Below are positions 8,082-42,190 of a DNA stretch of 64,000 nt, one piece after another. Under the pieces are notes generated by a model that saw only the letters and a list, made by a program, of their open reading frames with translations, was not told the DNA's origin and ran no database searches. This DNA is from Haliotis rufescens (taxonomy: Eukaryota), in NCBI RefSeq assembly GCF_023055435.1, contig NW_025963779.1:84754001-84818000 (forward strand), in the 5' to 3' direction. The translations under genes and the position numbers were made by a program. Every line of letters begins with the position of its first letter. Positions within the stretch are counted from its first letter, which is position 1.

Positions 8082-8612
8082 AAAAAAGATTATCATGTCA
8101 TTCACCCAGGGTCAGTACACGCTCTTGTTTAAAGCATTGTTTTATACGCCAGCAATTCCAGACCCCCCTCACATGATTGATTCAGCCATACAAACCAGTG
8201 CTTAATGATAAGAGCAACGTTACAAGCCATTAGCGAAAACGATGATACGCAATCAACCAAGTCCGGTCGCTTGCTCCAACTTTGTCGCATTATACAAGTA
8301 AGTATGTTTTAATGGGAGATGGGATTGGTTGAGTTACTGGTCAACAAACACAGATACGTTGATATCTCTCTGATCACCTCCGTCCCACAGGACTAGCATT
8401 AGGGGGCATTCCTACTAGAGTTTCTTTGACACAATCCGGCGCCGGCTCGAACCCCATAAATATTGCTCCATCTCAAACTGTGTACCTAACTATCACTAAC
8501 CATGAAAACAAAGGTGTTGTTTTCCATCAAAACCGGTTTATACCATATACGGTTTATAGTGAACCTATACAGTATCACCACTAAGTCGATAACCGGGTCA
8601 TTGTGCAGCTTG

Positions 8613-8798
8613 CCCGTGAACATCCGGTTTAGAATAGGTCTTCAGTGACCCATGTCGTGGTTGATGCATGTCCTCGAAATCAAATTGCGATGATTGATGC
8701 TCATGGTGTCAATCACAGGATTGTCTGGCCCAGATTATTTACAGACCGCCATCATATATCTGGAATATTGCCGAGTGCGGCGTTCAACAACAAACGAA
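8613..8798 (+). mobile_element. SINE-like family C copy (internal deletion)
   Basis: cccgtgaa...tagaataggtcttcag head; gattgtctgg...atttacagaccgcc...tggaatattgccgagtgcggcg tail. Confidence 0.8.
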
Positions 8799-8980
8799 CT
8801 ACTGTATTATGTAAATCCATGCTGAACCGCAGTTGCGAATATTATGTAGTTAAAGGAGTATGCCGAGCGGGACTGAATGGCGATGAAACATTCATTGCGA
8901 CAGTACCGTCTCCATTTAAGATGTCCTTGGTATATGCCCATGTAGCTCCACTAATTATGAGCTTCGGGTTCCCAACAAAA

Positions 8981-9216
8981 CCCCGTGAAGATCCGGGTTA
9001 GAATTGGTCTTCAGCAGCCTATGCTTGTCGTAAGAGGCGACTAACAGGATCGAGGTCAGGCTCGCTGACTTGGTTGATGCATGTCATCGTATACCAATTG
9101 CATGGATCGATGCTCATGATATCAATCACTGGATTGTCTGGTCCAGATTCGATTATTTACAGACTGCCGTCATACAGCTGGAATATTGTTGAGTGCGGCG
9201 ATAAACAACAAACAAA
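8981..9216 (+). mobile_element. SINE-like family C, near full length
   Basis: cccgtgaagatccgggttagaattggtcttcagc...cttgtcgtaagaggcgactaac...ggtcaggctcgctgacttggttgatgcatg...ctggaatattgttgagtgcggcg plus a (caaa)n-like tail. Confidence 0.88.
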
Positions 9217-9572
9217 GCGACAACAAAAGCTTGCCGCGAATAGCTGATGGTACGTTAAGGAATCATCACTCATCCACATCGACACTGTCTTAATACTATG
9301 CAAGAAACAGTTTTGTGTTTTACTGTATTATTATCGAGTTAACATACATTCGTTGTTTGTCTAAATCACCATGGTTACCGATTAATGAGTGTGATCTGCT
9401 GAACTGACATCCTCTCTTCAATAATATAGTATTGTGTGTATATATATATAATATTATCGATTCGAGTACCTACACATGTAGTTAGGTTACCGCTACTAGA
9501 TTCCGCAGTAAATGGGAGAAACACGCCTGAATTATGTAACCACGCTGCGCGATACATACACATTTGGGTCAG

Positions 9573-9838
9573 ACCCGTGAAGATCAGGGGTAGAATAGGT
9601 CTTCAGCAACCGATGTTTCCCGTAAAAGGCGACTATGCTTGTCGTAAGAGGCGACTAACGGGATCGGGTGGTCAGGCTCGCTGACTTGGTTGATGCATGT
9701 CATCGATCCCAATTGCGTGGATCGATGTTCATGTTGTCAATCACTGGATTGTCTGGTCCAGACTCGATTACTTACAGACAGCCGTCATATAGCTGGAATA
9801 TTACTGAGTGGGGCGTTAAACAGCAAACAAACAAACGA
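9573..9838 (+). mobile_element. SINE-like family C, full length
   Basis: Same consensus as 8981, with the 22-bp tgcttgtcgtaagaggcgacta module duplicated; (aaac)n tail. Confidence 0.88.
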
Positions 9839-9962
9839 ACATTTGGGTCAGGGCACTGTGACACTGACATGTCTTCAAACTGAAATCAAGCAGAACGTTT
9901 TTTGAATGGTTGCAGAAATGTTTAACCGTTATGTCACTTCAGAAGCTCTTGATAGATTTTCG

Positions 9963-10130
9963 CCCCGTGGGGATCCAAGGAAAGAACAGGACTCCTGCAT
10001 CCTGAGCTTGAAAGCTGATCAATGAGAATCGTTGGTTGGACTTTGGGTCACGGGTTTGTCTGTGATTATTATTTACAAGTCGCTAGTGATACACCTGAAA
10101 TATTAATATTGCTGTATTTAAGAAATAAAC
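9963..10130 (+). mobile_element. SINE-like family C, old diverged copy
   Basis: ccccgtggggatcc-aaggaaagaaca-ggactcc-tgcatcctgagctt head maps onto the family head; attatttacaag...ctgaaatatt...gctg maps onto the tail. Confidence 0.5.
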
Positions 10131-14061: not shown

Positions 14062-17000
14062 ATGGCTGACCCGAGAATAAGGCAAATCAAAATCAAGACT
14101 GGAGTCGTGAAAAGGCGAGTATTAACATGTTAACTTTCTTTTCTTATGTAGATCTATGCAGCATGATTCAGACGTGAAATGTCGCGTGTGTTTACACATG
14201 ACACTCGCCTGGGGACCTGCGCATGCTTGTGTACACCCGAGGCTCACTGTCAGGAGAATGCTGGTGATTTCTGTTTTATTTTCCGTCCTGTTTGTGAAAA
14301 TGTCATTGGCCGTAGCGATGTGTGAGATCGGATGCAGACCGTATCTACGACAAAATTACTAGATCTCCAACGTAGCAAGTTTGTTTCAAGTCATTCTGAT
14401 CTAGTCTGTTTTGTCGGTCTCCTTGACAACTATTAATTACAGTAATTTTCCTGCTGTTCATTATGATTGTGTGATTTTACTCTCACTCAGTATCAGTCTC
14501 GCTACAATCTACATGCAGAAAGTATGACCTGGTGACTTGTCTCTCGTTGCAGCTTCTGACTCATCCATCTACCTGATCTAGAATCAAAATGATGCATGTC
14601 TAAATATAAAAATTGTTCATTCTGTTTAGCATGACAGTGTATTCTAAACATTTTTTTATATATTCAGAAGTTTTACAAAGTTGAGTGATTGCCATGGTTT
14701 ACCATGTAGTCTGATATAAATTAACTTTCTTATATATATAAGGTGAGGGGCTGGTACAAGCTATCCAACCTGATAAATATCTGACCCCAGCTCAACCCAA
14801 ATGTCAGTCCAAGGCAAAGGCATCGGGTGTAGTGCATTTTACCAGGAGCACTTTTTCAGATCCAGTTAGATCTAGCACTGTGGGGACTCAAGTGCATTTT
14901 GCCAGCTCGTCTAATTAATGCGGTAATTTAGCCAAAGCTATACCACTGGTCAGTGGACCATAAGTGCTTTCCCACTTCTTCATCATTGCTTTCCAGGGGC
15001 GGTCGGGTAGCCTAGTGGTTAAAGCGTTCGCTCGTCAAGCCGAAAACCCGGGGTAGATTCCCGACATGGGTACAATATGTGAAACCCATTTCTGGTGTCC
15101 CCTGCCTAATATTGCTGGAATATTACTAAAAGCAGCACAAAACCATACTCACTCACTCACTCATTTCTTTCCACAGTGCATATCACATAATCAGGCTAAT
15201 ATCAAACATCTCCTATAATGGCTGCTGAGACAAAATTTGCAGATATTTTTCAAGATGATTGCTCTCATGGTGCGAGGAGCAAAGTTGTAGATATATTTAG
15301 ATATGGACATGCTGTGTACATGGTATGGGAATACTTGCAGGCATTTACCTAGACCTGCCCAGAGGCTGAATATATATAAGAAATGTTTTGCTTTATGAGG
15401 TTGACTTATATTTCACTGATGACAGGACCAATAAAGAGAAAGTGCCCTTATTATATTGAATGCAATGTTAAAATACCTCTATACATCAGAAAGTAATACC
15501 AGATGACCCCCAAGCTTACTTGCCTCAGCTCGCCTTTTTCCGTTTCTGACTGGGTGGTCAGGCTCGCTGACTTGGTTGAAGCATGTCATCGATCCCAATT
15601 GCGTGGATCGATGCTCATGATATTAATCACTGGATTGTTGGGTCCAGACTAGATTATTTACAGACCGCCGTCATATAGCTGGAATATTGCTGAATGCGGC
15701 GTAAAACAACAAACCAACCAAATCTGACCCAGTGACCACTCCGTGGGTGTAGGCTTATCATGTGACCAGACTTTTCTCTTGGTTCTAAACAAACTTACTT
15801 AAGCAAATTTAAATGAGAACAGTTAGGCCTTATGCAAGCCCTTCGTTGCATTTTACAGTTTACATGTTGTCTTGCATAATTGTACAGATGTGCTACTACA
15901 ACTGTGACAGTGAGATATATATAGCTTCACACATCAAAGTGACTGTATCGCCAGCTGTCAGTTGGGCTTCGACAGCACATGGAAGATGAATGCGCAAGAG
16001 GAAATAGTTTTCCACGTTTTAGGATATTTTCTCAATGAAAGATAAACCGTTTATGTCATATGTATATATAAATGTGTAAACTCGTCTGAAATAAAACAGA
16101 ATCACATGAATTGACTGGCCGCAAGGAACTCTGGGTAGGAGAGTGATTGGGATTATCCACATGAGACAACCAAGGAATATTTATATTGTGATGTAGGCTT
16201 TGATAATCACTGGCTTCTTATCTAATCTAGCTGGCAATTTGTATTTTGTGACTCGGCCATAATAAAACCTAAACCTTTTAACAAATGAATGATGCTCTGT
16301 GCAGCACTTGCGTTGTCGACTTTCCTGTGCGGAGCTCTCTATGTTTTGGCTTGAGAATTGAATCGGGCATGTGACGTAACACTCTTAAAATATTTTATAA
16401 CGCACAGAACCATCGACATACTTCCCCCGTAAAACAATCCCACTTTTGCACAAAGTAATTATGTTTGTCCATTTTGCATGCCATGGGTACTTAGTTTGGA
16501 ATCCAAGATAAATCCATGACGCCAGCAGACATCTTCAAGGACCCCACAAACATGACAAACCCCTGAACTGTGAACCAGCAGAATGTGACATAGTACATGA
16601 AGTATGGATTATAGATTCACATGGCTAGACATGGCCTAGTCCTGAGAGAAGAGAATATCTAAGAAGACTACCTGTTTTCTTCCCAAGTTAGGAGATACAC
16701 ATAATACAGCTGAAGTAGTCATTGTCGGCACAGGTACTTTTCTGTAAACAAAAATGTTCCCTAACCAATGAGCAAAAGCGGTTCTTTAGGTATTCCTGTG
16801 TACCAAACCGCAATTAAATTCAACATGGCAGTACTTATGAGATTCATTCCAGCGTATCATACAAGAGACGATCATACACAGTGGCGTACGTACAATAATC
16901 TAATATTCCTTGATGCACAGGTTATCAGGCAACCCGGAACTACAACAAGAACCAGTGTCTGTTTTGGGCTAGGGAATATGGACTCGTCCGCTGTATGGAG

Positions 17001-20000
17001 TACCAAGTACTTTTCTGCATTCTAATTTTGGCTTGGGAACATATTTGGATACAGAAACCTACCTGGGGTACATTTATGTAGTACCAGTGCTAACTATGAC
17101 CCATTCAGCCATAATGCAAGCACTTGTTGCTGAATTGGCAAACACATCGTAACAGTTGGTGCACACTCATCGAACTAGTAGTAACCAATGAGTGTGTTGT
17201 GTTTGATGTTGTATTTGTGATTAATACTGTGGTTTCCGATACAGACTGACAAAAGAGAAGTCGATGTACGAGAAGGAGGTGGAGACGCAGGAAGCTCGGG
17301 TCAACAAGATGAAGGCCGAAGGGGTCGATGAGCATGATGTCCGGAAACAGGTGAAGTTGCATCTCAGGCCATTCTGAGGAATATGATGGCTTACCCCTAC
17401 CGGCAATGACAATTGAAAGATTTTCAACTCTGCCTGCCTTTCATCACTTTATTGTTCCCAAGTACCATGAGTACAAACGGATGAATAAATTTCCTTTTTA
17501 TATATAATGACGGGGGGATATAGCCATCAGTATGTCTGTCCGTCCGTCTGTAATCATAGTTTGTCCGGAGCATATTTCCTAAACCGTACAATCTAGCTTC
17601 ACAAAACTTGTCACACTTACCAATCAGGCTCAGTAGTAGTGCCTTTTGCTATTTAGAGATTTTTAGAATGTTTTATTTTTGTCGTTTCCATCGAAATATG
17701 ATGAACTTAGGAAATTTGATGGTTCTGCTCTTGTCCGGAGCATATTTCCTAAACCGTACAACCTAGCTTCCCAAAAACTTGGTACACTTACCAATCAGGC
17801 TCAGTAGTAGTGCCTTTTGCTATTTAGGGATTTTTAGAATTTTTTTCTTTTGTCGTTTCCATGGAAATATGATGAACTTAGGAAATTTGAGGGTAGTGCT
17901 CTTGTCCGGAGCTTATTTCCTAAACCGTACAACCTAGCTTCCCAAAACTTTGTACACTTAACAATCAGGCTCAGTAGAAGTGCCTTTTGCTATTTAGGGA
18001 TTTTTAGAATTTTATATTTTTGTTGTTTCCATGGAAATTTGAGGGTAGTGCTCTTGTCCGGACCATATCTCCTGAACCATAGAACTTAGCTTCTCAAAAG
18101 TTTTTACACCTATCAAGCAGGTTATGTAGTGATGCCTTTGCTATTAACAGATTTTTCTTCTTCTTTTTTTAATTTAAATTGAAAATTGATGGAGCATATC
18201 TTCTAAGCCATGCGACATAGATTCACCAAACTTTATGCACATATAAATCATGTTCACTAGTAGTGCAGTTTGTTATTTGTAGATTTTAATCTTTTTAATT
18301 TGTAGCCCCTGACATATAATTCTAAGGTGTACTATTTACATGATTTACTGATATCATATACTATATATGATGTGAGCTACATAACCTAGTACATTCTCTT
18401 TATGCCTTTGTGTCATGAGGCTACTACAGAGCTATTCATATGCGAATCTGCGACGTTATTGTTATTACAATTTCATGAGATCATCAGAAAGTGAGCTACA
18501 TGAACCAATATTTAATAACCTTCATTATATTTCTGGTTTTGGCATCAAGGAAAAAGCCAACCTAAATACATTTGAAGATACACACAGTTTACCGACATGC
18601 CACATCGGGGGGATATGTCATCTTCGGATGACTCTTGTTTACTTTATTTATTGGTGTACCCAGTCTTACCTATCGTTGATACTGTTTGGTCAATACTTGA
18701 ACAGCTTTTTCAGAAAATATAATCTAAAAAATATGTTCCACCTCATATTTTACAATTTGAAAGAAAATCTTATAATGAATTTGTCATATTTTATTACTTA
18801 TCAATATCTGTAAAGTGTAGCAATGTGTTTCAGCTGTGATGAGATGGCCTTCTCGTTAGACCTTGTTGAGGTGTGGCATGGTATCTCATGGGCTAGCACT
18901 GTAAAACCATCATTAGTCCGGACTAATTTAATAAGGCACACACACACACATGTGCATGCACAATGCTTATATGAGTACAATAATCATGAACAGACCCCAT
19001 TTCACCTCGTCTTAGGGTCTCCTCCCTGATCTTGCATCTTTGTCACTGGGGGGCCCAGTCGTCTAAGGCGCCGCGATTTGCTGTGCAGAGTTGCATCCCT
19101 TGTGCATGCCAGAAACCTATGATTGTAGGTTCGAATCCCGGTTCGCCCCGATTATGTTTCTAGGTTTGTCAGCACCATATTGTGCTCGTCGGTTTCACTG
19201 AAGTGGTAAACGTCTGAGACCTGCATCATTTCGGGCTTTCCTCCCACATTAAGCTGACACACCGCGCTATAACTGGAATACTGTTAAAAGCGGCGTTAAG
19301 CACAACTCACTCAATTCTTTGTCACTGTAAGTGTTCCAAGTTGGACCAGGACCCAGACAAAGCCATGCTGGTGGTCCTTGTCGCAACATCACGATCATGG
19401 ATTCAGAGTTCCTCAAGAGATTCACTAAACAACATGCTGAATATTTATTGTAGGAATAGTGTGATGATAACATGTTTGTTATTTATATCAAATACATGCC
19501 CTTGTGGTGATTCTGGTTTGGAATAGGTCTCCTGCCTTGTGTGCTTGTTGTATGAGGCAAGATCTGGGACTTAGTTGAGTCCCTGTACCCAGAGACGTGG
19601 GCCACTTCTCATAGTAACAAGCACTGGTCATAAGCCTAAAGTTAATAATAAGAAAATAAGATGTGTTCTAAGATATATTATGAAAGCAAACCTCAACCAT
19701 ACTCAGAGACCCTAGGAAGCTCCTTCATTGCTAACCGTGTCTCCAACTAAATATGTTTCACAGGCTTTGCAAACCCTGTTTGGTATTCACTGGTAAGAGT
19801 CCTGGGGTAGTGTTTAGTTTGCAGTGGGGGTGGAGTTGTTATCCCCTGCTATAAAGTGGAAGTGGGATATAGGAATGGGTCATGTTTGTCTGTCATATTT
19901 CGTTTCCGGAGCAGAACTCAAACCCATGAGAGACATCTTAACCAGACTTGGCACATGGATAGCTCTAGTGGTGAACTGGTGCCTTTTGATAGTTTGGGAT

Positions 20001-21588
20001 TTTAAAAAAAAAAGTATTTTTCGAGTTTCCATGGCAACAACTTTGACTTAGACTGAGATAATATCAATCACTGGATTGCCTGTTCCATGCATGATTATGC
20101 ACAGACTGCTGTCCTATAGCTGGAACATTGCTGAGTGGGACGTTGAATAGCAAAACAACAAAACCCTTACCTTTCCAAACTTGACTGGGGGCGGTCGGGT
20201 AGCCTAGTGGTTAAAGCGTTCGTTTGTCACGCCGAAGACCCGGGTTCGATTCCCGCCATGGGTACAATGTGTGAAGCCCATTTCAGGTGTCCCCCCACCA
20301 TGCTATTGCTGGAATATTGCTAACAGCAGCATAGCCACACTCACTCACTCACTCCAGACTTGACAGACATTGTGGGATGTGTGTGACTGATGCTTGTTAC
20401 AGATGGAGGTGCTGCAGGAGTCCCGCGTGATGATCCCGGACACCAAGAAGAGGCTGAGGACGGCGTACGATGAGCTGGAACAGACACTGGTACGTACATC
20501 TGTAACAATCAGTAGGAATACAGTAAACTCAGATTCATTATCATCATTATGATTTAAATATGGCTGTGAAAATTATGGGTCTGGTATCAGAAATGTTGAT
20601 CCATGGCCCCTAGGGCTAGGATGATACACCAACTATGCGATCTGATATGTATCACGATATCGTGGTCACGATCCGATACGTAACACGATACTTGCATGTG
20701 CTCTCATCTGTGGTACTGAGGCCATTTGTATCCCCCCCCCCCGCATAAAATGCGTGGGGGATATAGCGATCAGCCACTCTGTCTGTCCGCCTGTCCGCCT
20801 ACCTGTCCGTAATCATTTCCTTTTCCGGGGCAGAACTCCAAAACCATTCAGTATATATTTGATCGAAATTTGAAAGATGTATCAGTCACATACTGAAGTG
20901 GTGTCTTTTGATATTTGGGGATTTTTCGAATTTTTATTTTTGAAAATCTTTAGGGAAAGAAGTTGGACAAGGACACGATTGCTTGTTTCACAGATAATTT
21001 TGTGCGACTTGTTTTAGTTTCTGGAGCGTAACTCGATAACCGTTCTATATTTTTCAACAAAACTTGGCAGATATATCAAACAGATGTGTTGCCTTTAGTA
21101 TTTGCAGATTTTTGGCATTTTTATTTTTCTTGATTTCCATGGAAACAATTTGGATTTGTCATCGTGCATGCATGTCATCATATTCCAATTGCGTGGATAG
21201 ATGCTCATGATGTTAATTACTGGATTGTCTGGTCCAGATTCGATTATTTACACACCACCATCATATAGCTGGAATATTGCTGATTGCAGCGTTATAAACA
21301 AACAGAACACAAGATAATGCTGAAAGATTCTGAACTAGGGCATAATAACACTTGATCTGAAATACTGTCGTCACAAGATTAGATTTGATTTTGTCAAAAT
21401 AAGATCGGACACCATCTTGTATCCAGGCTGTCAAAATAATAGGATTATTTGCAGATGTTCGATTATCATGTCAAACAATGAGTTTTGTATGTTTATCCTT
21501 ACAGCAAAGAGAAAGTGATCTGTCAGGAGCAGAGGAATTCGGCCAAGCCAAGGAGATCCTGGAGGCAGCACAGACAGCTCTAGCATAG
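14062..21588 (+). CDS. TBCA: Tubulin-specific chaperone A; exons 14062-14114, 17245-17350, 20403-20489, 21505-21588; 109 aa
   Basis: MADPRIRQIKIKTGVVK-R-LTKEKSMYEKEVETQEARVNKMKAEGVDEHDVRKQ-MEVLQESRVMIPDTKKRLRTAYDELEQTL-QRESDLSGAEEFGQAKEILEAAQTALA*. This is recognisable TBCA sequence with consistent intron phases (2,0,0). Not in the ORF track because the exons are short. Confidence 0.95.
14996..15162 (+). mobile_element. tRNA-derived SINE family A
   Basis: A box tagcctagtgg, degenerate B box, (cact)n tail, approximate TSD catt(g/t)ctttcca. Confidence 0.88.
15551..15721 (+). mobile_element. SINE-like family C, 5'-truncated
   Basis: gggtggtcaggctcgctgacttgg through gcggcgtaaaacaacaaaccaacc. 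Confidence 0.85.
17505..18640 (+). mobile_element. Helentron-associated (HINE/DINE-1-like) non-autonomous element carrying ~170-bp internal tandem repeats
   Basis: 5' ggggggatata followed by a (gtcy)n microsatellite; repeat units start at 17563, 17733, 17904, 18056; 3' cggggggatat, hairpin gtcatc-ttcg-gatgac (18617-18632), then a T-rich end. Confidence 0.75.
19048..19313 (+). mobile_element. tRNA-derived SINE family B
   Basis: ggcccagtcgtctaaggcg A-box region, gttcgaatccc B box, shared ctggaata..gttaaaagcggcgttaa tail, TSD tctttgtcactg. Confidence 0.88.
19840..20050 (+). mobile_element. HINE-like fragment
   Basis: tatcccc...gggatata 5' inverted pair, gtctgtc, and one unit related to the 170-bp repeat (ccggagcagaactc...cttggcac...gtgccttttg...tttccatgg). 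Confidence 0.55.
20187..20353 (+). mobile_element. tRNA-derived SINE family A
   Basis: A box, ggttcgattcc B box, (cact)n tail, approximate TSD tcca(a/g)acttgac. Confidence 0.9.
20728..21158 (+). mobile_element. HINE-like fragment with two internal repeat units
   Basis: tatcccccc...gggggatata, (gtcy)n tract, two units related to the 17563 repeat. Confidence 0.6.
21160..21303 (+). mobile_element. SINE-like family C, 3' part
   Basis: gcatgtcatc...caattgcgtggat...ggattgtctggtccagattcgattatttac...ctggaatattgctga. Confidence 0.8.
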
Positions 21589-23271: not shown

Positions 23272-23562
23272 TGTTTTGTTTGTTTGTTGTTTAACACCGC
23301 ACTCAGCAATATTCCATCTATATGACAGCGGTCTGTAAATAATTGAGTCTGGACTAGACAATCCAGTGATTGACATCATGAGCATCGGTCCATGCAATTT
23401 GGGTGCGATGACATGCATCTTCCAAGTCAGCGAGTCTGACCACTTGAACCTGTTAGTCGCCTCTTATGACAAGCATAGTCACCTTTTATGGCAAGCATAG
23501 TTGCCTTTTACGGCAAGCATGGGTTGTTGAAGACCTGTTCTACCCTGGGTCTTCACAGGTCT
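23272..23562 (-). mobile_element. SINE-like family C, full length, antisense
   Basis: Reverse complement of the family C consensus, with three copies of the 22-bp module. Confidence 0.85.
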
Positions 23563-23977
23563 TTAGATGTGTAAATCGATAATCTCTTGTAATGGCATTG
23601 TTTGGATTTGGATGACCTATCGCAGGAGGCAAAGTTTCAAATCACTGAAGGATATAAATTGGCATGTAGTCATTACATTACCCTCCTTGCACCCACATTG
23701 TGTTTAAGACCACTCAGTTAAGTTTGTATGAGTGTGCTTCAGTCCCCTGTAAGGCTGACTATTGTCCCTGTTATGTGAACCCTCATTGTTGTTCATCAAG
23801 ATGTCAATGTCTACCCCTATCAGATCATGTCAGCATGTGTTCCTTTTGCATAAAATATATGACAAATCAAACAAATAAACTTTTATTCAAGTGAATGTGT
23901 TTTGTACAGACAGATGTATCACAGCCACTGCTCTTACTGTATGTGAACAGTGCAAAATACTAGGCTGATAAATCAGA

Positions 23978-29132: not shown

Positions 29133-29391
29133 AATCTATATTCTGTTAAAATGTTTATTTTCCAAAACTAAACGAACCGGATTTCCCCGTTCTTTGATGC
29201 AACTGGCTACAAGTGCTCGGATATGAAAGGAAGGATGTCTGTGATGCCGCGAGACTTCAAGTATCGTTGTGCCATGTACTTCCTCACGTTCTGCTTATAC
29301 AAGGGCATCTCTGTGTCTGTGTGTGCTGGCGATTTTCACGTCAGACCATTGTTTTTAACCATAAGGTGACTTTCTTTTACTTTATAATAGG

Positions 29392-29654
29392 ACCCGTGAA
29401 GATTCCGGATTCTTCGGGAACCCATGCTTGCCGTAAAAGGCGACAATGCTTGTCGTAAAAGGCGACTAACGGGATCGGGTGGTCAGGCTCGCTAACTTGG
29501 TTGATGCATCTCATCGATCCCAATTGCGTGGATCGATGCTCATGATATTGATCACTGGATTGTCGGGTCCAGACTCGATTATTTACAAACCGCCGTCATA
29601 TAGCTGGAATATTGCTGAGTGCGGCGTTAAACAACAAACCAACCAACCAACCAA
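29392..29654 (+). mobile_element. SINE-like family C, near full length
   Basis: acccgtgaagat head with a shortened first hairpin, duplicated 22-bp module, (aacc)n tail. Confidence 0.88.
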
Positions 29655-30370
29655 CTTTATAATACATATGAAAAATAATATTTGTCTTTTATCTGCGCAA
29701 TCGCATTGTTTGCGTATTTTCCACGAGTCGGATATTTTGGGTTGAATCTTAGCTGAAGTGATGAACACACATCACGCAGGGTGAGCTACCGTACCGACAA
29801 ATGGCTATCCTTTCTTAATGAAACAGAGGAACATAGACAACTTGAGGAGATAACGACACAACTTTGTGGGTCTTTATAGAAGATGCGTCACATGCAAATA
29901 TATTCTATAACATTTCGTCCAATTGTAAGGCCTCTCGTGACCAGTGTCACTCCCGACATGGAGGCAAATATTGTATTTTACAGACAAAGAGTCATTGAGA
30001 CCGACGACCGAAATTATATCCGCGGTCCATATCTCGCTTACCGTTACTATTAGAATTTATATATTCTATAAGGAAATAAGTATGGTGAACTATTTATACG
30101 ATAAAACACGCCTCCGAGGTTTTGGTTGAAATTGTAAAATAGCGAGCGAGGGAAAAGCTTTTAGCGTGACAATAGCGTGACGTCATCATAAAGATTTAAC
30201 TGTTGAATGTTTTACTTTGTTCAGTGTGATTAAAGTCGCATGATGCATGATTCAAGTCGGAACAATCACTTGAACCTGTTGATACCGGAAGTAGAATCAA
30301 CAGAATCTCATCATTTCTCCATAACGTAACTGGGGTCTTTTGATTTGTGAATGGTATTCATTCATCTAAG

Positions 30371-30538
30371 GGGGCGGTCGGGAAGCCTAGTGGTTAAAGC
30401 GTTCGCTCGTCACGCCGAAGACCCGGGTTCGATTCCCGACATGGGTACAATGTGTGAAGCCCATTTCTGGTGTCCCCCGCCGTGATATTGCTGGAATATT
30501 GCTAAAAGCGGCGTAAAACAATACTCACTCACTCACTC
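30371..30538 (+). mobile_element. tRNA-derived SINE family A, young copy
   Basis: Near-consensus A box, intact B box, (cact)n tail, perfect TSD tcattcatctaag. Confidence 0.92.
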
Positions 30539-31486
30539 ATTCATCTAAGACAAGTAATATGTAGCACACATTAATTCTTCATCCCAAACCGAGTTTTGAA
30601 TCTATCCATTCAATAGTCTTCATGACAATAGCCCTTGCTCTTACATGCTGTCTTACTGTATGTACATGACCTTAAACCCTCCCTAGAATACCCCAAGCCT
30701 CTCACTGATGCCGTCTTGAACCTGTAAATGGCTATGACCAGAACCATCACACTTTGTGTTTCTGCATCCCCGGACTCGTCACTAGAAGATGATAATAGAT
30801 GGTACTTGTTCTTACACTGGCGCTCGGCTCCGCATTAAGGGGGTAAAACAAGGGCTGGTCGGCTCGGAGTCAGTATACTGTGTCTGAGTGGGGTATTCAT
30901 GTTAAACTGCGGCATGGTATCTCGCTAATATAAGTGCAATAATAATCTTGGACGCGACATTAAACTCCATTTTTACCTTCACTCGTGTTTCTGCTCGGCA
31001 ACCTCTCAAGCATGTACTGACCCCACACGCGATAGCTTCAGACCCAACCAGATACACAAGGAAAGCATCTTTCTGGGCTCTCATATTCTTCAATATTTTC
31101 AGATCTTGTGTGTGTACGAATATAAGAGCCGGATATTAGGCTGCACACAATGAACTAATTGTTGAAACAATTATTTAAATATACTCAAAATAAATACCAT
31201 AATAAATGTCAACTAATAACTGATCTTTTTCAACATAGGTTGTGACAAGGTATTGACTTACGTCTCATCAATGTAGTGTATCAATGAACGGATCACAGAA
31301 ACACTGATTATACGATGCCTTTAATAGAGATGCGCCACTCCACCAGAAACACTGCCCTTTTGACCGTCATACGCATGTGTGCAACCAATAGCAGTCCATC
31401 TGCCCATCCGATTACATACAATAAGAATTACGTCCTTGTGCAAGACAGAGCAATAGCTGACACCAAAGAAAGCTGCATCAACCGCG

Positions 31487-34400
31487 ATGCTGTCTCCGCT
31501 GGCCTACCCCCTCAGCGTCCTTCTGGTCCTTGTCTCCCGAACCGACACAAGCACGGGTACGTTGATTGGGGGTATTACGGTTAATTTCTTGGCATTCGTG
31601 CGAGGCATTTTCTTGAATGGTGTTGATTCCTTTATGTATGGGCTTTTGTTTCTAGGGTCAGACATACGAGTATCCATACGGACGTGACGTTTTTAATCTA
31701 CGAATGATACCTGCTTAATTGTCATGTTATAAATCAATGTATAGTCGATGCATTTCCATTTGTGCATATTTCACAAACAATAATTAGCTATAAACGGCGA
31801 ACAAGCATGGCTACTGGAAACGACATGGAGTACTGGGGACAAGTATGGGTATTGGGAACGGTTAGCATGGGTTACTGGGGACAATCATGGATATTGGGGA
31901 CGGTTAGCTTGGGGTAGTGGGGACAAACATGGGTATTGGGGACGGTTAGCTTGGGGTAGTGGGGACAAACATGGATATTGGGGACGGTTAGCTTGGGGTA
32001 GTGGGACAATCATGGATATTGGGGACGGTTAGCTTGGGGTAGTGGGACAATCATGGATATTGGGGACGGTTAGCTTGGGGTAGTGGGGACAAACATGGAT
32101 ATTGGGGACGGTTAGCTTGGGGTAGTGGGACAATCATGGATATTGGGGACGGTTAGCTTGGGGTAGTGGGACAATCATGGATATTGGGGACGGTTAGCTT
32201 GGGGTAGTGGGACAATCATGGATATTGGGGACGGTTAGCTTGGGGTAGTGGGGACAATCATGGATATTGGGGACGGTTAGCTTGGGGTAGTGGGGACAAT
32301 CATGGATATTGGGGACGGATAGCATGGGGAACTGGGGACAAACATGGGTATTGGGGACGGATAGCATGGGGTAGTGGGGACAATCATGGATATTGGGGAC
32401 GGTTAGCTTGGGGTAGTGGGGACAATCATGGATATTGGGGACGGTTAGCTTGGGGTAGTGGGGACAATCATGGATATTGGGGACGGTTAGCTTGGGGTAG
32501 TGGGGACAATCATGGGTATTGGGGACGGTTAGCTTGGGGTACTGGGGACAAGCATGGGTATTGGGGACGGTTAGCATGGGGTAGTGGGGACAAGCATGGG
32601 TATTTGGGACGGTTAGCATGGGGTACTAGGGACAAACATGGGTATTGGGGACGGTTAGCATGGGGTACTGGGGACAAGCATGGGTATTGGGGACGGTTAG
32701 CATGGGGTACTGGGGACAAACATGGGTACTGGGGACGGCAAGCATGAGACATTGGGGACGACAAGCACTAGAAACGGGGCATCTTATCCCGAATTAGTGG
32801 TATTTTTTATTAAGACACATCGAAACTAGAACAGTGAGTGAAGTTTACTATGAGTTTGGGGGTCGATGTGCAGATCCATCAATGGTGTGACGCACTTTAC
32901 TTTCTTCCTGTTGGCAACAATTGTTAGTTTAGGCTGAATTTTGAATTCTTGAATAATATCATCGGAATAGGGAAGTTTCAAATGTGCTGTAATACATACA
33001 TTAACAAGATACTTGACCTGAATTCCAGTTCATGGATTATAAACTGCCACACGTTTACAAATGTTGGGTCTGGTTTACCGCAGTACAGGAAGTTTATAGA
33101 CTTTTAATCAGGTTGAGCAGAGCAGAGATATTTAATAATAGATGTAGACCTCACTTGCTTTTGTAGATGTCAGTTAAGATATCAAAAGGTTAGCCTCCTA
33201 ATCACTCGTCTTTCTTGACAGATAACATTCTAGATTACACAACTTACGATGACAACATGGTGATTGTGTCAGTTGTTCTGTGCAGGTGGCATGGTGGACA
33301 CACTACTTGGATCCTACCAGAAGGAAGTCCATCCCCGACCTGAGGACAACCAGAGTGTGTACGTGACGCTGGATCTGGCGATCAGACAAGTTGTAGATCT
33401 GGTAAGCTGACGCCTTCTTGTGAATGCTTTATGAAGAAACATTATGAAAGTCGGAGCAATGTTTTGTAATGGAACAATACTGTGGATAGTGCCATCGCAG
33501 GGTGGCATGCTGGCAGGATAGCGGGATATTTGGCTTGCAGCCTTAGGGCGAAGTTGTGGTAGGGGGGCATTGTAGTGGGGTGAGAGGTCGGCGTGATGAT
33601 GGGGTGGCTGGGTGGCAGTGTAGTGGGGTAGGAGGGTGGCGTGATGATGGGGTGGCTGGGTGGCAATGTGGTGGGGTGGGAGGTCGGCGTGATGATGGGG
33701 TCGCTTGGTGGCAGTGTAGTGGGGTGGGAGGGTGGCGTGGTGATGGGGTGGTAGGGGGGTATTGTAGTGGGGTGGGAGGTCGGCGTGATGATGGGGTGGC
33801 TGGGTGGCAGTGTAGTGGGGTGGAAGGACGGCGTGATGATGGGGTGGTAGGGGGCAGTGTAGTGGGGTGGAAGGACGGCGTGATGATGGGGTGGCTGGGT
33901 GGCAGTGTAGTGGGGTGGGAGGGTGGCGTGATGATGGGGTGGCTGGGTGGCAGTGTAGTGGGGTGGGAGGTCGGCGTGATGATGGGGTGGCTGGGTGGCA
34001 GTGTAGTGGGGTGGGAGGGTGGCGTGATGATGGGGTGGTAGGGGGGCAGTGTAGTGGGGTGGGAGGTCGGCGTGATGATGGGGTGGTAGGGGGGCAGTGT
34101 AGTGGGGTGGGAGGGTGGCGTGATGATGGGGTGGTAGGGGGGTATTGTAGTGGGGTGGGAGGTCGGCGTGGTGATGGGGTGGTAGGGGAGCAGTGTAGTG
34201 GGGTGGGAGGTCGGCGTGATGATGGGGTGGTAGGGGGCAGTGTAGTGGGGTGGGAGGTCGGCGTGATGTTGGGATGGTAGGGGGGCAGTGTAGTGGGGTG
34301 GAAGGACGGCGTGATGATGGGTTGGCTGGATGGCAGTGTAGTGGGGTGGGAGGGTGGCGTGATGATGGGGTGGTAGGGGAGCAGTGTAGTGGGGTGGGAG

Positions 34401-37400
34401 GGTGGCGTGGTGATGGGGTGGTAGGGGAGCAGTGTAGTGGGGTGGGAGGTCGGCGTGATGATGGGGTGGTAGGGGGCAGTGTAGTGGGGTGGGAGGTCGG
34501 CGTGATGTTGGGATGGTAGGGGGGCAGTGTAGTGGGGTGGAAGGACGGCGTGATGATGGGGTGGCTGGATGGCAGTGTAGTGGGGTGGGAGGGTGGCGTG
34601 GTGATGGGATGGCTGGGTGGCAGTGTAGTGGGGTGGGAGGGTGGCGTGGTGATGGGATGGTAGGGGGCAGTGTAGTGGGGTGGGAGGTCGGCGTGATGAT
34701 GGGATGGCTGGGTGGCAGTGTAGTGGGGTGGGAGGGTGGCGTGATGATGGGGTGGCTGGATGGCAGTGTAGTGGGGTAGGAGGGTGGCGTGATGATGGGG
34801 TGGCTGGATGGCAATGTAGTGGGGTGGGAGGGTGTCGTGATGATGGGGTGGTAGGGGGCAGTGTATTCGGGTGGGAGGGTGGCGTGATGATGGGGTGGCT
34901 GGATGGCAGTGTAGTGGGGTGGGAGGGGCGTGATGATGGGATGGTAGGGGGCAGTGTAGTGGGATGGGAGGTCGGCGTGATGATGGGATGGCTGGGTGGC
35001 AGTGTAGTGGGGTGGGAGGACGGCGTGATGATGGGGTGGCTGGGTGGCAGTGTAGTGGGGTGGGAGGGGCGTTATGATGGGATGGTAGGGGGCAGTGTAG
35101 TGGGGTGGGAGGGTGGCGTGGTGATGGGGTGGCTGGGTGGCAGTGTAGTGGGGTGGGAGGGTGGCGTGATGATGGGGTGGTAGGGGGCAGTGTAGTGGGG
35201 TGGGAGGGTGGCGTTATGATGGGATGGTAGGGGGCAGTGTAGTTGGATGGGAGGTCGGCGTGATGATGGGGTGGCTGGATGGCAGTGTAGTGGGGTGGGA
35301 GGGGCGTGATGATGGGATGGTAGGGGGGCAGTGTAGTGGGGTGGGAGGGGCGTGGTGATGGGATGGTAGGGGGGCAGTGTAGTGGGGTGGGAGGGTGGCG
35401 TGGTGATGGGGTGGTAGGGGCAGTGTAGTGGGGTGGGAGGGGCGTGATGATGGGATGGCTGGATGGCAGTGTAGTGGGGTGGGAGGGTGTCGTGATGATG
35501 GGGTGGTAGGGGGCAGTGTAGTGGGGTGGGAGGTCGGCGTGATGATGGGATGGTAGGGGGGCAGTGTAGTGGGGTGGGAGGTCGGCGTGATGATGGGATG
35601 GCTGTGTGGCAGTGTAGTGGGGTGGGAGGGTGGCGTGATGTTGGGATGGCTGGATGGCAGTGTAGTGGGGTGGGAGGTCGGCGTGATGATGGGATGGCTG
35701 TGTGGCAGTGTAGTGGGGTGGGAGGGTGGCGTGATGATGGGATGGCTGGATGGCAGTGTAGTGGGGTGGGAGGTCGGCGTGATGATGGGATGGCTGTGTG
35801 GCAGTGTAGTGGGGTGGGAGGGTGGCGTGATGATGGGATGGCTGGATGGCAGTGTAGTGGGGTGGGAGGTCGGCGTGATGATGGGATGGCTGTGTGGCAG
35901 TGTAGTGGGGTGGGAGGGTGGCGTGATGATGGGATGGCTGGATGGCAGTGTAGTGGGGTGGGAGGGTGGCGTGGTGATGGGGTGGTAGGGGGCAGTGTAG
36001 TGGGGTGGGAGGGTGGCGTGGTGATGGGGTGGTAGGGGGCAGTGTAGTGGGGTGGGAGGGTGGCGTGGTGATGGGGTGGTAGGGGGGCAGTGTAGTGGGG
36101 TGGGAGGGGCGTGATGATGGGATGGTAGGGGGGCAGTGTAGTGGGGTGGGAGGGTAGCGTTATGATGGGATGGCTGTGTGGCAGTGTAGTGGGGTGGGAG
36201 GTCGGCGTGATGAGGGGATGGCTGTGTGGCAGTGTAGTGGGGTGGGAGGTCGGCGTGATGTTGGGATGGCTGGGTGGCAGTGTAGTAGGGTGGGAGGTCG
36301 GCGTGATGTTGGGATGGCTGGGTGGCAGTGTAGTGGGGTAGGAGGGTGGCGTGGTGATGGGGTGGTAGGGGGCAGTGTAGTGGGGTGGGAGGGTGGCGTG
36401 GTGATGGGGTGGTAGGGGGCAGTGTAGTGGGGTGGGAGGGGCGTGATGATGGGATGGTAGGGGGGCAGTGTAGTGGGGTGGGAGGGGCGTGATGATGGGA
36501 TGGTAGGGGGCAGTGTAGTGGGGTGGGAGGGGCGTGATGATGGGATGGTAGGGGGGCAGTGTAGTGGGGTGGGAGGGTAGCGTTATGATGGGATGGCTGT
36601 GTGGCAGTGTAGTGGGGTGGGAGGTCGGCGTGATGATGGGGTGGTAGGGGGCAGTGTAGTGGGGTGGGAGGGTTGCGTTATGATTGGATGGCTGGGTGGC
36701 AATGTAGTGGGGTGGGAGGGTGGCGTGATGATGGGGCGTCCTAGCGAGGGTGGTGGGTGGTTTAGTGGTGGGATGATGCTGTTGGTTAATGGCAGAACGG
36801 AAGGGATGGTGGGTCGGGTGGCCAGCAGGTTGGTACAGGGGCGGGACAATGGGATGGGGGTGGGGGGGTGGGGTGGGGGGGTGGGGGGCAGAGCAGTGAT
36901 GTGTGTTCTTTCTTAATTGACCTGTTCAGATCCTTTTCAATACGTATTATGTTGTTTTACAATGAACCTAGTGATGTGTCATCTTCTGACGACTCAACTT
37001 ACTCCTTGTCTACATTTCTAGGCCGAGACAAAGCAGATTCTGACAACCAATCTGTGGATCCGCATGGTAAGATCTTTGTTTTCACGAAAATACAAATATT
37101 AAATAAATAATATTGCCTGAGGTTTAACCGAAAAAAATAATCGTTCACCGGACATGTTGATAGGGTTGGAAAAGGTGAGTTGTGTGTCGGAGCACATCGT
37201 TGGGGTCCTCCAAAAAACGCATGTCTTGTGGCAGGGACCTAAAAAGTAACATATGATTTATTCTGCAGAATTGGACCGACCACAGACTCACATGGAACCC
37301 ATCAAGTTTCGATGGAATTGACACCATTTATGTACCTTTGGACAGTATCTGGACACCCGACGTCACCCTTTACGATGAGTAAGTGTATTGGCTGACTGTT

Positions 37401-40400
37401 ATTAATTATTTAGCCATGAGGACATGAGTTGATCCTAGTAATTCACAGTAATCACAGGACCAATGCTTGTCGTCCCCTATAGTAGCCCATGCTTGTCGCC
37501 CCCTATAGTAGCCTTTGCTTGCCATCCCCTATAGTAGCCTGTGCTTGCCATCCCCTAATGTAGCCAATGCGTGTCGTCCCCTATAGTAGCCCATGCTTGC
37601 CATCCCCTATAGTAGCCAATGCACCAGGCCCCTTATAGTAACCCATGCTTGTCGCCCCTATAGTAGCCCATGCTTGTCGTCCCCTATAGTATCCTTTGCT
37701 TGTCGTCCCCTATAGTATCCCATGCTAGACGTCCCCTGTAGTAGTCCATGCTTCTTGCCCCCTATAGTAGCCCATGCTTGTCGCCCCCTATAGTAGCCCC
37801 TGCTTGTCGTCCCCTATAGTAGCCCATGTTTGTCGCCCCTTTAGTATCCTATGCTTGTCCCCTATAGTAGCCCATGCTTGTCGTCCCCTATGGTATCCTT
37901 TGCTTGTCGTCCCCTATAGTAGCCCATGCTTGTCGTCCCCTATAGTAGCCCATGCTAGTCGTCCCCAGTAGTAGTCCATGCTTCTCGCCCCCTATAGTAG
38001 CCCATGTTTGTCGTCCCCTATAGTAGCCCATGCTTGTCGCCCCTATGGCAGTCCATTCTTGTCGCCCCCATAGTAGCCCATGCATATGGCCCCTTATAGT
38101 AGCCCATGCTTGTCATCCACTATAGTAGCCCATGCTTGTTGTGCCCCTATAGTAGCCTATGCTTGTCGTCCCCTATAGTAGCCAATACTTCTCGCCCCCT
38201 ATGGTAGCCCATGCTTGTCGCCCCCTATAATAGCCTATGCTTGTCATCCCCTATAGTAGCCCATGCTTGTCGCCCCTATAGTAGCCCATGCTTGTCGTAC
38301 CCTATAGTAGCCCATGTTTGTCGCCCCTATAGTATCCTATGCTTGTCCCCTATAGTAGCCCATGCTTGTCGTCCCCTATGGTATCCTTTGCTTGTCGTCC
38401 TCTATAGTAGCCCATGCTAGTCGTCCCCTGTAGTAGTCCATGCTTGTCGCCCCCTATAGTAGCCCATGCTTGTCGTCCCCTATAGTAGCCCATGCTTGTC
38501 GCCCCCATAGTAACCCATGCTTGTCGCCCCTATAGTAGCCCATGCTTGTCGTTCCCTATAGTAGCCCATGCTTGTCGTCCTCTATAGTAGCCCATGCTTG
38601 TCGCACCCTATAGTAGCCCATGCTTGTCGCCCCCATAGTAGCCCATGCTTGTCGTCCCCTATAGTAGCCTATGCTTGTCGCCCCCATAGTAGCCCATGCT
38701 TGTCGTCCCCTATAGTAGCCCATGCTTGTCGCACCCTATAGTAGCCCATGCTAGTCGTCCCCTATAGTAGCCCATGCTTGTCGCCCCCTATAGTAGCCTA
38801 TGCTTGTCGTCCCCTATAGTAGCCTATGCTTGTCGTCCTCTATAGTAGCCCATGCTTGTCGCCCCCTATAGAAGCCCATGCTTGTCGTCCCCTATAGTAG
38901 CCCATGCTTGTCAACCCCATAGTAGCCCATGCTTGTCGCACCCTATAGTAGCCCATTCTTGTGGTCCCCTATAGTAGCCCATGCTTGTCGCACCCTATAG
39001 TAGCCAATGCTTGTCGTCACCTATAGTAGCCTATGCTTGCCGTCCCCAGTTCCTAGCAGCCACTAGGTACTGTTGCCTTATGAAGACTTTCACTCAGTGA
39101 TGAGCTAAGGAACAGATTGCATAAGTCTGTATTCTATTTGTAGCACAGCATTTGGCAGTAACGTCGCTCTGTCGGAAAGGAAGTTCCACAAACTAAAAGT
39201 AACCAATGAAGGCAGAGTAACGCAGAGATTCCCCACCGTCCTCAGCAGCATCTGCGGTGTCGACACCACCTACTTCCCCTTTGACAAACAGCTATGTCCA
39301 CTCAAGTTCGGCTTGTGGCTCCACGATGACGACATTGTGACCTTGACAAGCGACCAGACAGGGGACACCACGTCGTATCTCGAGAATGCTGAATGGTTCC
39401 TCACCGGAATCGATGCAGAGAAGAAGCCATATTTGTACAATGGTTTAGTCTACAGCACTATCACGTACACTGTGTCCATACAAAGACGACCGGCGTTCTT
39501 CATGCTGACGCTGTTCTTCCCATGTTTTCTCCTCAGTAGTATGTCGATCCTCGGGTTCCTCCTCCCGCCAACTTCAGGGGAGAAGGTCGGACTGCAGGTC
39601 ACCCTGCTGCTGTCCCTGACAGTGTTCCTGTTCCTCACCATTGATACGCTGCCACCAAACTCCGAACCATTGCCACTTATGTGTAAGTACAGAAATAGTG
39701 AATGGACATGTCACTTGAAGATCCACCACTAGACCACTAGCATTCGTCACCACTCGCCGCTTTCCGTAACCTGCAAAAAGACTCGTCCCCCTATCGATGA
39801 ATGTTATGTGCGAAAATACGACAAACCAATCAAAATCCGCATTTGACTTCAAGTTCTTCGGTCAAAGAATCCCTCGGGAATAATTTTTGATTTTACATAT
39901 GTCTTGCATCTAAAAAAATACCAAACATACAGTTATATGTGTTCAATCATGCTGTATAATACCGCATGTCCCGATGTGCTTTAAATTGCATCCGAAATTA
40001 TATAATATATGGGGATATATATGTGAATCATTACGCAACGAGTAGACAATTCTTTTAGCTATGCCCCTTTGCGCTTAGACTGAACCTGGTCGCAAAAATG
40101 GCCACGAGAGGGGCACGAGTCGCTATTCGGCTTGTCCCGGAATAACACGAATTGGTCACGAATGGACCATTAGTTCGGTCCAGGCCCAAGAAACCATTGC
40201 TTGTCGTAATAACCGACCAATGAGGATTGCTTATGTGGCCTGGGTATTTGGCCGCTTACAAGTCAATCACTACTTTGCCTGGACCAGACGATTACTTTCA
40301 GGTTGCAGTGATAAAGTTGTAACAGCGTTTACCGCGGCGTAAAACAACACTTTTGTTACAAGTTATTCATATTAGCGGATGGAATCTTGCATTTTATACA

Positions 40401-41108: not shown

Positions 41109-41980
41109 ACACCATCTGAAAAACACAGGAATGGTACCTGTGCGTGTACCGTTTGACAATCTGGATTGTCTCCCTTTAGATCATTCTTTCATACTATAGC
41201 TTTTACACGTGACAACACAATATTTATCTATTTCCCAACTGCATTAATAATAAGAAAGTCCTAGCTTTTAACGTAATACATTTTATGAAGAGTTTCATAT
41301 TTATTCTACGTTTAGCCAGCCTTAACCACGTATTCTCTATCAAAAATAAAACGAAATGTCTATCTATGTAAAACATGGGTTGCTGAAGACCTATTCCACC
41401 CCGCGTCTCCACGGTCTTGTTCAAAGTGTTTGTGTTTTGGATCATGGTCAATTTTGTGTTGTTTTTACCACCAGGTTCTTTGATTTGGACAAAACAAGGT
41501 TTGAACCACCTTGGAGATGAATGTTGATCATCGTGTCTCATTTATTTCAGTTACAGGGCCAGGTTCCTGCTCAAAAGTAATATTGCTCTGATTGCTCTGA
41601 TAACACTATTGTGCTTTAGTGCTGACTAGTACTTGAAATTGACGGCCATCTTGATTTTTTGTAGATTTATCAATAGTCGAAAAAGTTCAGTAATTGTGAA
41701 TATGTTGTAAGAAACATAATATGGCTAATTCGCAACAAAACACATGCTTTTTTCATCAAAAGATTTAACCTCATCTGAAATAAGAAAGATACATAATTAA
41801 TCGGAGGCCAGATTGGATTATGCAAATAAGACATATTTCTCAAACTAGGATTGCTTGAGACTTCTAGTATGTTATTCTTGGGACCTTGTAGAAATGCATT
41901 GTTGTGAAATAAATTCTGTTTGCAATTTGTTCCAAGTGAAACCTTATTTTGCCTGGACTGTATGGGTCCATGACAATCTA

Positions 41981-42190
41981 CCCCTGTAGATCCAGGGATA
42001 GAATAGGTCTTCAGCAACCCATGCTTGCTTGTCGTATGAGCAGACTATGCTTGTCTTAAGAGGCGACTAACGGGATCGACTAACGGGATCGGGTGGTCAG
42101 GCTCGCTGACTTGGTTGATGCATGTAATCGTATCCCAAATGAGTGGACCGATGCTCAGTCACTGAATTCGATTACTTACAGACCACCTTC
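41981..42190 (+). mobile_element. SINE-like family C copy with internal duplications and deletions
   Basis: tagaataggtcttcagcaacccatgcttg...aggcgactaacgggatc...ggtcaggctcgctgacttgg. Confidence 0.8.

Follow-up and report, generated by a model that had tools for sequence, protein, structure and literature searches.

The CCCG-starting SINE copies in this stretch of the Haliotis rufescens genome carry a 5′ module of about 70 nt that is predicted to fold as an H-type pseudoknot followed by a conserved hairpin. The family is a known type of SINE with a real RNA structure that is common to LINEs and RNA viruses. The structure is apparently undescribed; in the literature searched, no account of the RNA structure of the head or of its viral copies was found, and only PMC4758252 names the head. 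From the sequences compared, the structure appears to be selected at the RNA level. We put at about even the chance that the head is an exonuclease roadblock which sets and guards the RNA's 5′ end, probably with a second role. The window referred to throughout is the whole stretch of 64,000 nt that was analysed.

Eight copies had been listed in the sequence-only reading of the window. All eight are present, each beginning at a CCCG-like point, and a covariance model recovers all of them (E 3.5e-19 to 1e-4, rough E-values) together with two decayed heads, at 19496 and 40152, that were absent from the earlier list. The copies are as follows.

8608..8799, + strand: pseudoknot kept, hairpin deleted.
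8980..9227, + strand: the SINE copy described in detail below, with head, body, LINE-type tail and (ACAA)n; 3′ end approximate.
9572..9838, + strand: full-length copy with the 22-nt hairpin unit duplicated.
9959..10027, + strand: decayed head that probably belongs to an older subfamily (GGGGAUC/GGACUCC).
19496..19575, + strand: decayed head found by the covariance model.
23275..23564, − strand: full-length copy with three hairpin units.
29388..29655, + strand: copy with a deletion inside the pseudoknot.
40152..40350, + strand: strongly decayed copy.
41365..41416, − strand: pseudoknot alone, 3′ part gone.
41976..42160, + strand: copy with internal duplications.

Pseudoknot and hairpin are both intact only in the copies at 8982, 9574, 23559 (− strand) and 41981; the knot of the 29392 copy is interrupted by its deletion, and the hairpin is absent from those at 8613, 9963 and 41415. 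The 9572..9838 copy is bounded by a 13-nt target-site duplication (9560–9572 and 9839–9851), and a weak candidate duplication of 8 nt was seen for the 8980..9227 copy. A 31-nt head pattern has 10,001 exact matches in this genome against 0 for the reversed control, and the copy number of the head is far beyond chance. The window also contains long minisatellite arrays at 1–2596, 31801–32767 and 33556–36736, with units of about 71, 84 and 95 nt.

In the predicted fold, S1 has 4–5 bp, L1 is a single U, S2 has 7 bp and L3 is A-rich; next come a stem and an internal loop, and then the hairpin. The parts are given here for the 8980..9227 copy, with cells counted over 17 lineages.

8982..8985, + strand: S1 5′ strand, CCCG, pairing with 8994–8997; 65 of 68 cells paired.
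8986..8986, + strand: L1, the one-nucleotide loop U; U in 16 of 17 lineages, a count helped by an anchoring that favoured U.
8987..8993, + strand: S2 5′ strand, GAAGAUC, pairing with 9006–9012 and crossing S1; 108 of 119 cells paired.
8994..8997, + strand: S1 3′ strand, CGGG.
8998..9005, + strand: loop L3, ending AGAAU(A/U/G).
9006..9012, + strand: S2 3′ strand, GGUCUUC, followed in most lineages by an N-G-Y triplet (9013–9015).
9016..9026, + strand: P3 5′ strand (mutated in this copy) and the GCNU side of the internal loop.
9027..9044, + strand: hairpin GUCG-UAAGAGG-CGAC plus UAA.
9045..9048, + strand: P3 3′ strand, CAGG here and CGGG in most copies.

L3 measures 7–9 nt in viral copies and up to 23 nt in one SINE, and its predicted place is the minor groove of S1. 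In the older SINE subfamily (L492, L501–L503, L518 and window 9959–10027) S2 is seemingly richer in G-C on both strands; its copies are too decayed for the S2 pairs to be fixed, and a guessed pattern for this subfamily gave 0 matches.

The 17 lineages, retroelements and viruses, were anchored by a pairing-maximising search, so that p-values from this table are biased in favour of the fold. Loci L083, L103 and L170 (5′ part missing or garbled), L155/L159 (a phage match without the knot) and the near-duplicates (L157, L097, L126, and every member but one of the dominant metagenome family) were left out. After shuffling of partners, 71 of the S2 cells pair, to be set against the count listed above. 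The MAFFT alignment test and the viral flank-shuffle test are free of the pairing-search bias. When 11 retroelement heads are aligned with MAFFT, 90.2% of cells pair in the corrected structure (slid-register controls, 32–48%) and two-sided changes occur in 18 cells, a result reached in 0 of 500 shuffles by statistics that ignore kinship. In this alignment S1 is 88% paired, with two-sided change in 2 pairs, and S2 has two-sided change in five of its seven pairs. The P3 stem, of 5–6 bp in the LINE subfamilies, is borderline across lineages (p = 0.05). Single-strand MFE folding is uninformative for a knot.

These results uphold the central claim of the sequence-only reading, that the head forms a structured RNA module with a pseudoknot and marks the 5′ end, and retain two of the four helices proposed there, S2 and the hairpin. 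The S2 helix, given as UGAAGAYC/GGUCUUCA, is confirmed by covariation. The GUCG/CGAC hairpin is conserved without covariation, on which the data are silent because its stem never varies; the stem is invariant in 11 of 11 rows, in part owing to the design of the search, and the hairpin loop and UAA do vary in LINEs retrieved by protein search. The two other helices fell away. The outer stem CCCGU/ACGGG is 49% paired on the MAFFT alignment and pairs in 39 of 85 cells over the 17 lineages (permutation p = 0.50); the 5′ CCCG pairs instead with the CGGG inside what had been drawn as a loop. The GGGUU/AACCC knot is 80% paired in retroelements, yet without any two-sided change (p = 0.70 with viruses included), and most heads among the first 100 matches listed read GGGGU, not GGGUU.

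Rfam 15 gave nothing on the head, either at the gathering threshold or at E up to 10. The looser search returned five matches on 12 loci, no ribozyme family among them (twister, pistol, hatchet, hammerhead, hairpin and twister-sister are absent), in agreement with the earlier remark that the topology is that of none of the HDV-like, twister and hammerhead ribozymes. That the head lacks a tRNA and A and B boxes was also correctly noted from the letters: Rfam and ARAGORN find no tRNA there. The ARAGORN tRNA search returned 0 genes, and Rfam has a single gathering-level match in the window, to a tRNA located at 20193 inside another SINE. The element is not a tRNA-derived SINE (SINE2) with A and B boxes. 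A tRNA-headed SINE is present in the window at 14996–15165, 20188–20354 and 30371–30541; it has a related tail and an (ACTC)n end, the same repeat as in the LINEs found here.

The element is most likely an LP-SINE, matched by its features rather than by alignment to the Hdi_LP or Hmi_LP consensus. LP-SINEs are known from Haliotis, Littorina, oysters and a fruit fly (Hdi_LP, Hmi_LP, Lsa_2, Sgl_LP, Oco/Oed_LP; PMC4758252), and their head of about 70 bp is common to the 5′ ends of Nimb-17_LMi, I-3_DR and RTE-9_CPB (PMC4758252). The same paper proposes a promoter role for the head and asks for experiments, and gives a length of 255 bp for Hmi_LP. Like LP-SINEs, the element here has a LINE-derived head of about 70 nt in place of a tRNA, target-site duplications, a LINE tail and a length of about 255 bp. 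Its head is homologous to the module with which full-length EN-RT-RNase H LINEs begin at their 5′ end in this genome and in L174 and L089, and the LINE-type tail carries short tandem repeats. A tail was recognisable in 45 of 60 copies sampled, and 26 of these 45 have variable target-site duplications (8–16 bp) directly flanking the head. The duplication ends 1–3 nt ahead of CCCG in 23 of the 26, and GA precedes CCCG in 38 of the 60; since the duplication abuts the head, nothing lies upstream of it. The SINE tail resembles that of the LINE, yet ends in (ACAA)n rather than (ACTC)n, so that the exact partner LINE of the SINE was not found.

The scallop LP-SINE heads in the supplement of PMC4758252 have the same hairpin and a matching knot, whereas RNA structure, viral copies and a ribozyme-bearing sister LINE do not figure in the parts of that paper available to us. 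The module had been proposed as undescribed; head and LINE origin were already reported there, with the head as a presumed promoter. The idea of a graft onto a LINE-type tail is right as regards the tail and understated the case, the head itself being a LINE 5′ end as well. The likeness to LINE 5′ ends of other animals, suggested in the sequence-only reading for RTE-type elements of invertebrates, holds, and the module is found at such ends.

LINEs of this genome were located via ORF1 of a metagenome LINE, and intact ones have an ORF2 with endonuclease, reverse transcriptase and RNase H. The module hairpin lies upstream of ORF1 in all 30 LINE loci sampled, in one of them via a SINE insertion. 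Two sister subfamilies, with ORF2 77% identical, differ at the 5′ end and provide a ready-made natural control. The first begins 58 nt before the module, at G1 of a minimal HDV-like fold. In this 58-nt unit, P1 (7 bp), P3 (3 bp), L3, P1.1 GG, J4/2 C-N-A-A and P2 fit and P4 is minimal; the Rfam model HDV-F-prausnitzii scores 26.5–28.5 bits, below its cut-off of 44, and the unit is predicted to be an HDV-like ribozyme. It was seen at L353–L382, L383–L388 and L389–L426 (e.g. L385:222-279). The LINE that carries it is of I/Nimb type, with about 1,000 copies; the ribozyme-bearing clades given in the available part of PMC5786205 are R1, R2, R4 and RTE, together with Ingi and LOA, a list from which I/Nimb is absent. 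The last bases of the ribozyme are retained in 1003 of 1070 exact matches to the knot of this LINE, and among 93 distinct copies the ribozyme is complete in 89 and partial in 4, and none starts at the module.

The ribozyme-less sister (28 matches, 25 distinct) begins U-CCCCG in 24 of 25 copies, with random letters before it, and the exact U start is confirmed by target duplications of 11–13 bp in all four full-length copies. Its L3 has 16 nt, and ORF1 and ORF2 are intact in two copies (L577–L580, L549–L576). Behind the ribozyme, the module of the first LINE keeps S2 through an A-U/C-G swap. A relaxed conservation in that position was considered and dropped, as the same variants occur without the ribozyme. 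A further conserved stem-loop (GCAACC...GGUUGC-like) lies just 3′ of the module in L174, L130, L089 and L353 and is absent from the SINE.

The start of a bare head lies six letters ahead of the loop U, irrespective of which letter stands there (G and G in the two SINEs, U in the LINE). The start position is G in 38 of 60 copies of this SINE and in 60 of 68 copies of the second SINE family, and in the ribozyme-less LINE G is not in excess at the next base outward (7 of 25). A cap-derived G or a purine start site, suggested by the two SINEs, is ruled out by the U-starting LINE. Stalling of the reverse transcriptase was likewise set aside as the cause of the boundary, since a stalled enzyme would halt 3′ of the fold and the ribozyme-bearing copies read through the fold. 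The insertion boundaries fall at the base of S1, and are DNA proxies rather than mapped RNA ends. Three miRNA-seq runs, all from one study, yielded 31-nt antisense reads, with hardly any sense reads at the heads, and are uninformative on long RNA ends. The antisense 31-nt RNAs are piRNA-like and map to the SINE body (L010:1418-1448) and the LINE pseudoknot (L385:285-315), mostly in one of the three runs.

Precision of the start to a single base would be expected of a self-cleaving ribozyme of a new class, cutting six nucleotides before the loop U with the hairpin and AGAAUA as its active site. We hold this, the self-cleavage idea of the sequence-only reading carried over to the corrected fold, to be quite unlikely. 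The head does alternate with the HDV-like ribozyme as the 5′ end of the sister LINEs, and its unpaired bases are highly conserved, including a C-N-A-A string that we take to resemble HDV J4/2. The lack of module starts among the 93 copies does not argue against cleavage, because the hypothetical cut site would there be buried in the HDV P2 helix. Where this LINE family has a recognisable ribozyme fold, however, it is a separate HDV-like unit upstream, and Rfam's ribozymes give no match to the head even with the threshold relaxed to E 10. Multi-head SINE copies also suggest that internal heads are left uncut, with slippage accounting for part of them.

SINE copies with 2–15 tandem pseudoknot units of 45–52 nt at the 5′ end were seen at L329, L338, L340–L350, L012 and L015; some sit inside target-site duplications, and C/T-rich spacers recur. 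The multi-head copies contain 1,269 junctions; copies at unrelated loci have the same extra spacer, and they start at the first knot, which lacks the hairpin. Tandem heads were discarded as proof of RNA cleavage at GUC, a plain microhomology junction occurring 360 times too.

The 18-nt hairpin pattern alone picked out nine viral loci, seven of them distinct. The whole pseudoknot lies upstream of the hairpin in six of the seven, as against at most 0.1% with shuffled flanks; the seventh is a chance match in a phage, without the knot. A model built from retroelement heads only scores the six viral copies at E 1e-18 to 5e-10 (rough E-values). Looser viral patterns yielded no further true copies, and a descriptor run over 154 loci kept known loci only, missing two true ones, L153 and L158. 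Five of the six are RNA viruses, four of them with RdRP or tetravirus-type capsid families in Pfam.

L156: RdRP_3 and nodavirus-type capsid (Pfam).
L158: RdRP_3 (Pfam).
L154: RdRP_4 (Pfam).
L152 and L157: peptidase A21 capsid (Pfam).
L151: no Pfam match; counted as an RNA virus by layout only.

In all five the module is on the coding strand, 6–101 nt past the stop that closes the final long ORF, no other long ORF follows it, and L151 has the start of a second module copy in tandem. The sixth copy (L153:2951-3032) is in a DNA virus contig of 212 kb, where a full module separates two genes of the same orientation and lies 121 nt past the upstream stop. Animal-derived metagenome contigs supplied 120 loci with the head, 112 of 121 matches coming from one SINE family. 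The head was also found in five prokaryote assemblies, in what looks like host DNA: a LINE with ORF1 and an endonuclease ORF2 (L174:2977-6045) and the SINE-like repeats L170–L173. These are likely animal DNA in the bins.

The published view of a LINE promoter, taken as an internal promoter acting at the DNA level with an incidental fold, agrees with the constant place of the module at or near the start of the element (PMC4758252). A DNA promoter cannot explain a module in viral 3′ UTRs, and these RNA viruses have no DNA stage; S1 and S2 show compensatory changes, and no internal starts are seen behind the ribozyme, where a promoter would be expected to fire regardless. Promoter activity as the sole function is largely refuted, and we regard it as most improbable. 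For cleavage, the place of the module is awkward as well. Some linear RNA viruses carry ribozymes (PMC13725137), and in the part of that source available these mostly precede ORFs or form close pairs; the module trails the last viral ORF, where a cut would remove the genome 3′ end for no coding gain.

The fold might also be where a host factor docks (translation initiation, the ribosome or an RNA-stability protein), with the 5′ end set separately. This is unlikely in our judgement, as are its two corollaries: that docking would aid uncapped viral and LINE RNAs and bring SINE RNA to the LINE protein, and that the 5′ end would be set, for example, by an overlapping internal promoter, as in the dual Pr77 of L1Tc. 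In its support, the module is kept behind an HDV-like ribozyme, whose product would be uncapped, and occurs in tombus-like viruses, the characterised relatives of which are uncapped, and between the two genes of the DNA virus contig; the hairpin unit alone is duplicated in many SINE copies. For the 77-mer of L1Tc, promoter plus ribozyme activity is cited in PMC4758252. Docking nevertheless requires a second device for the exact start, and the U start without an extra G and the 0 of 93 internal starts are unlike a Pol II promoter. The 3′ cap-independent enhancers are, moreover, described as plant-virus-specific in the available part of PMC12397905.

A structure that blocks decay would explain the fold, the fixed start, the alternation with a ribozyme and the place in viral 3′ UTRs, and the exonuclease roadblock is the preferred reading, self-cleavage being the weaker one. 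Covarying S1 and S2, the viral 3′ UTR position and a start fixed by distance rather than by letter argue for it, and two marks of xrRNAs, a pseudoknot and a place past the last stop in the five viruses, are found. The elements would be read through from host promoters; enzymes of the Xrn1/Xrn2 type would digest the host leader and halt at the base of S1; and a Nimb-type LINE reverse transcriptase, recognising the tail, would copy the trimmed RNA. The same barrier in a viral RNA would leave behind a short 3′-terminal RNA, as known xrRNAs do. With an HDV-like ribozyme in front, trimming would be unnecessary and the end would be shielded. Compensatory change keeps the fold behind the ribozyme, so that a second role is likely and end-setting would not be the sole job; this role may be in RNA stability or in binding a host factor through the hairpin. 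Against the roadblock, the length of L3 ranges over 7–23 nt in elements that have succeeded, a poor fit to a tight ring of 15–16 nt built from L3 alone, and no known xrRNA class model in Rfam 15 matches the head. The hairpin, being almost invariant, resembles a pocket for binding or catalysis more than a mechanical block, and LINE starts exact to one base also fit cleavage.

xrRNAs have been described from viruses, and PMC8374639 closes by asking when one will turn up in cellular RNA. If the module blocks exonucleases, it would be a third route to a retrotransposon 5′ end beside promoters and ribozymes, would explain why one 70-nt head is found across unrelated LINE clades and many SINEs, and would be a structured RNA common to viruses and animal genomes. 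If it cleaves instead, it would be a new ribozyme class. It falls a little short of an even chance, in our estimate, that the head represents a new xrRNA class which has passed among RNA viruses, a DNA virus and animal retrotransposons, swaps with an HDV-like ribozyme, frees SINEs from the need for a promoter of their own and has reached more than 10,000 copies.

Among known systems, the P1/pseudoknot/AAAUA module of the pistol ribozyme resembles the head in its short stem, loop pseudoknot, A-rich linker and G just after the knot. The P2 and cleavage junction of pistol are without counterpart in the head, and Rfam gives no match. Like the HDV-like ribozymes at LINE 5′ ends (PMC5786205) and Pr77 of L1Tc/ingi, the head is a short 5′ module that fixes the 5′ end and is common to unrelated LINEs and their non-autonomous partners. 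Unlike the HDV-like ribozymes, it is a simple H-type knot plus hairpin without the P1-P2-P3-P1.1-P4 order, and follows no G+1 rule, with U in 24 of 25 LINE copies. xrRNAs sit in viral 3′ UTRs (PMC8374639), and those of class 3 stop the enzyme at the 5′ base of P1 (PMC11702639). The head differs from them in lacking an Rfam match, in being present in retrotransposons and in that its exonuclease resistance is a prediction; compared with class 3 as described in the available parts of these sources, it has no P2/L2B element, an N-G-Y triplet after the knot strand and an extra hairpin domain. As in class 3 xrRNAs (ST9a, SCNMV, PLRV; PMC11702639, PMC12397905) and flaviviral xrRNAs (PMC8374639), the loop of a stem-loop pairs with a downstream strand, the module stands at the start of a viral 3′ UTR, and a tandem copy occurs; the boundary, in the head a DNA insertion boundary, coincides with the 5′ base of the first stem.
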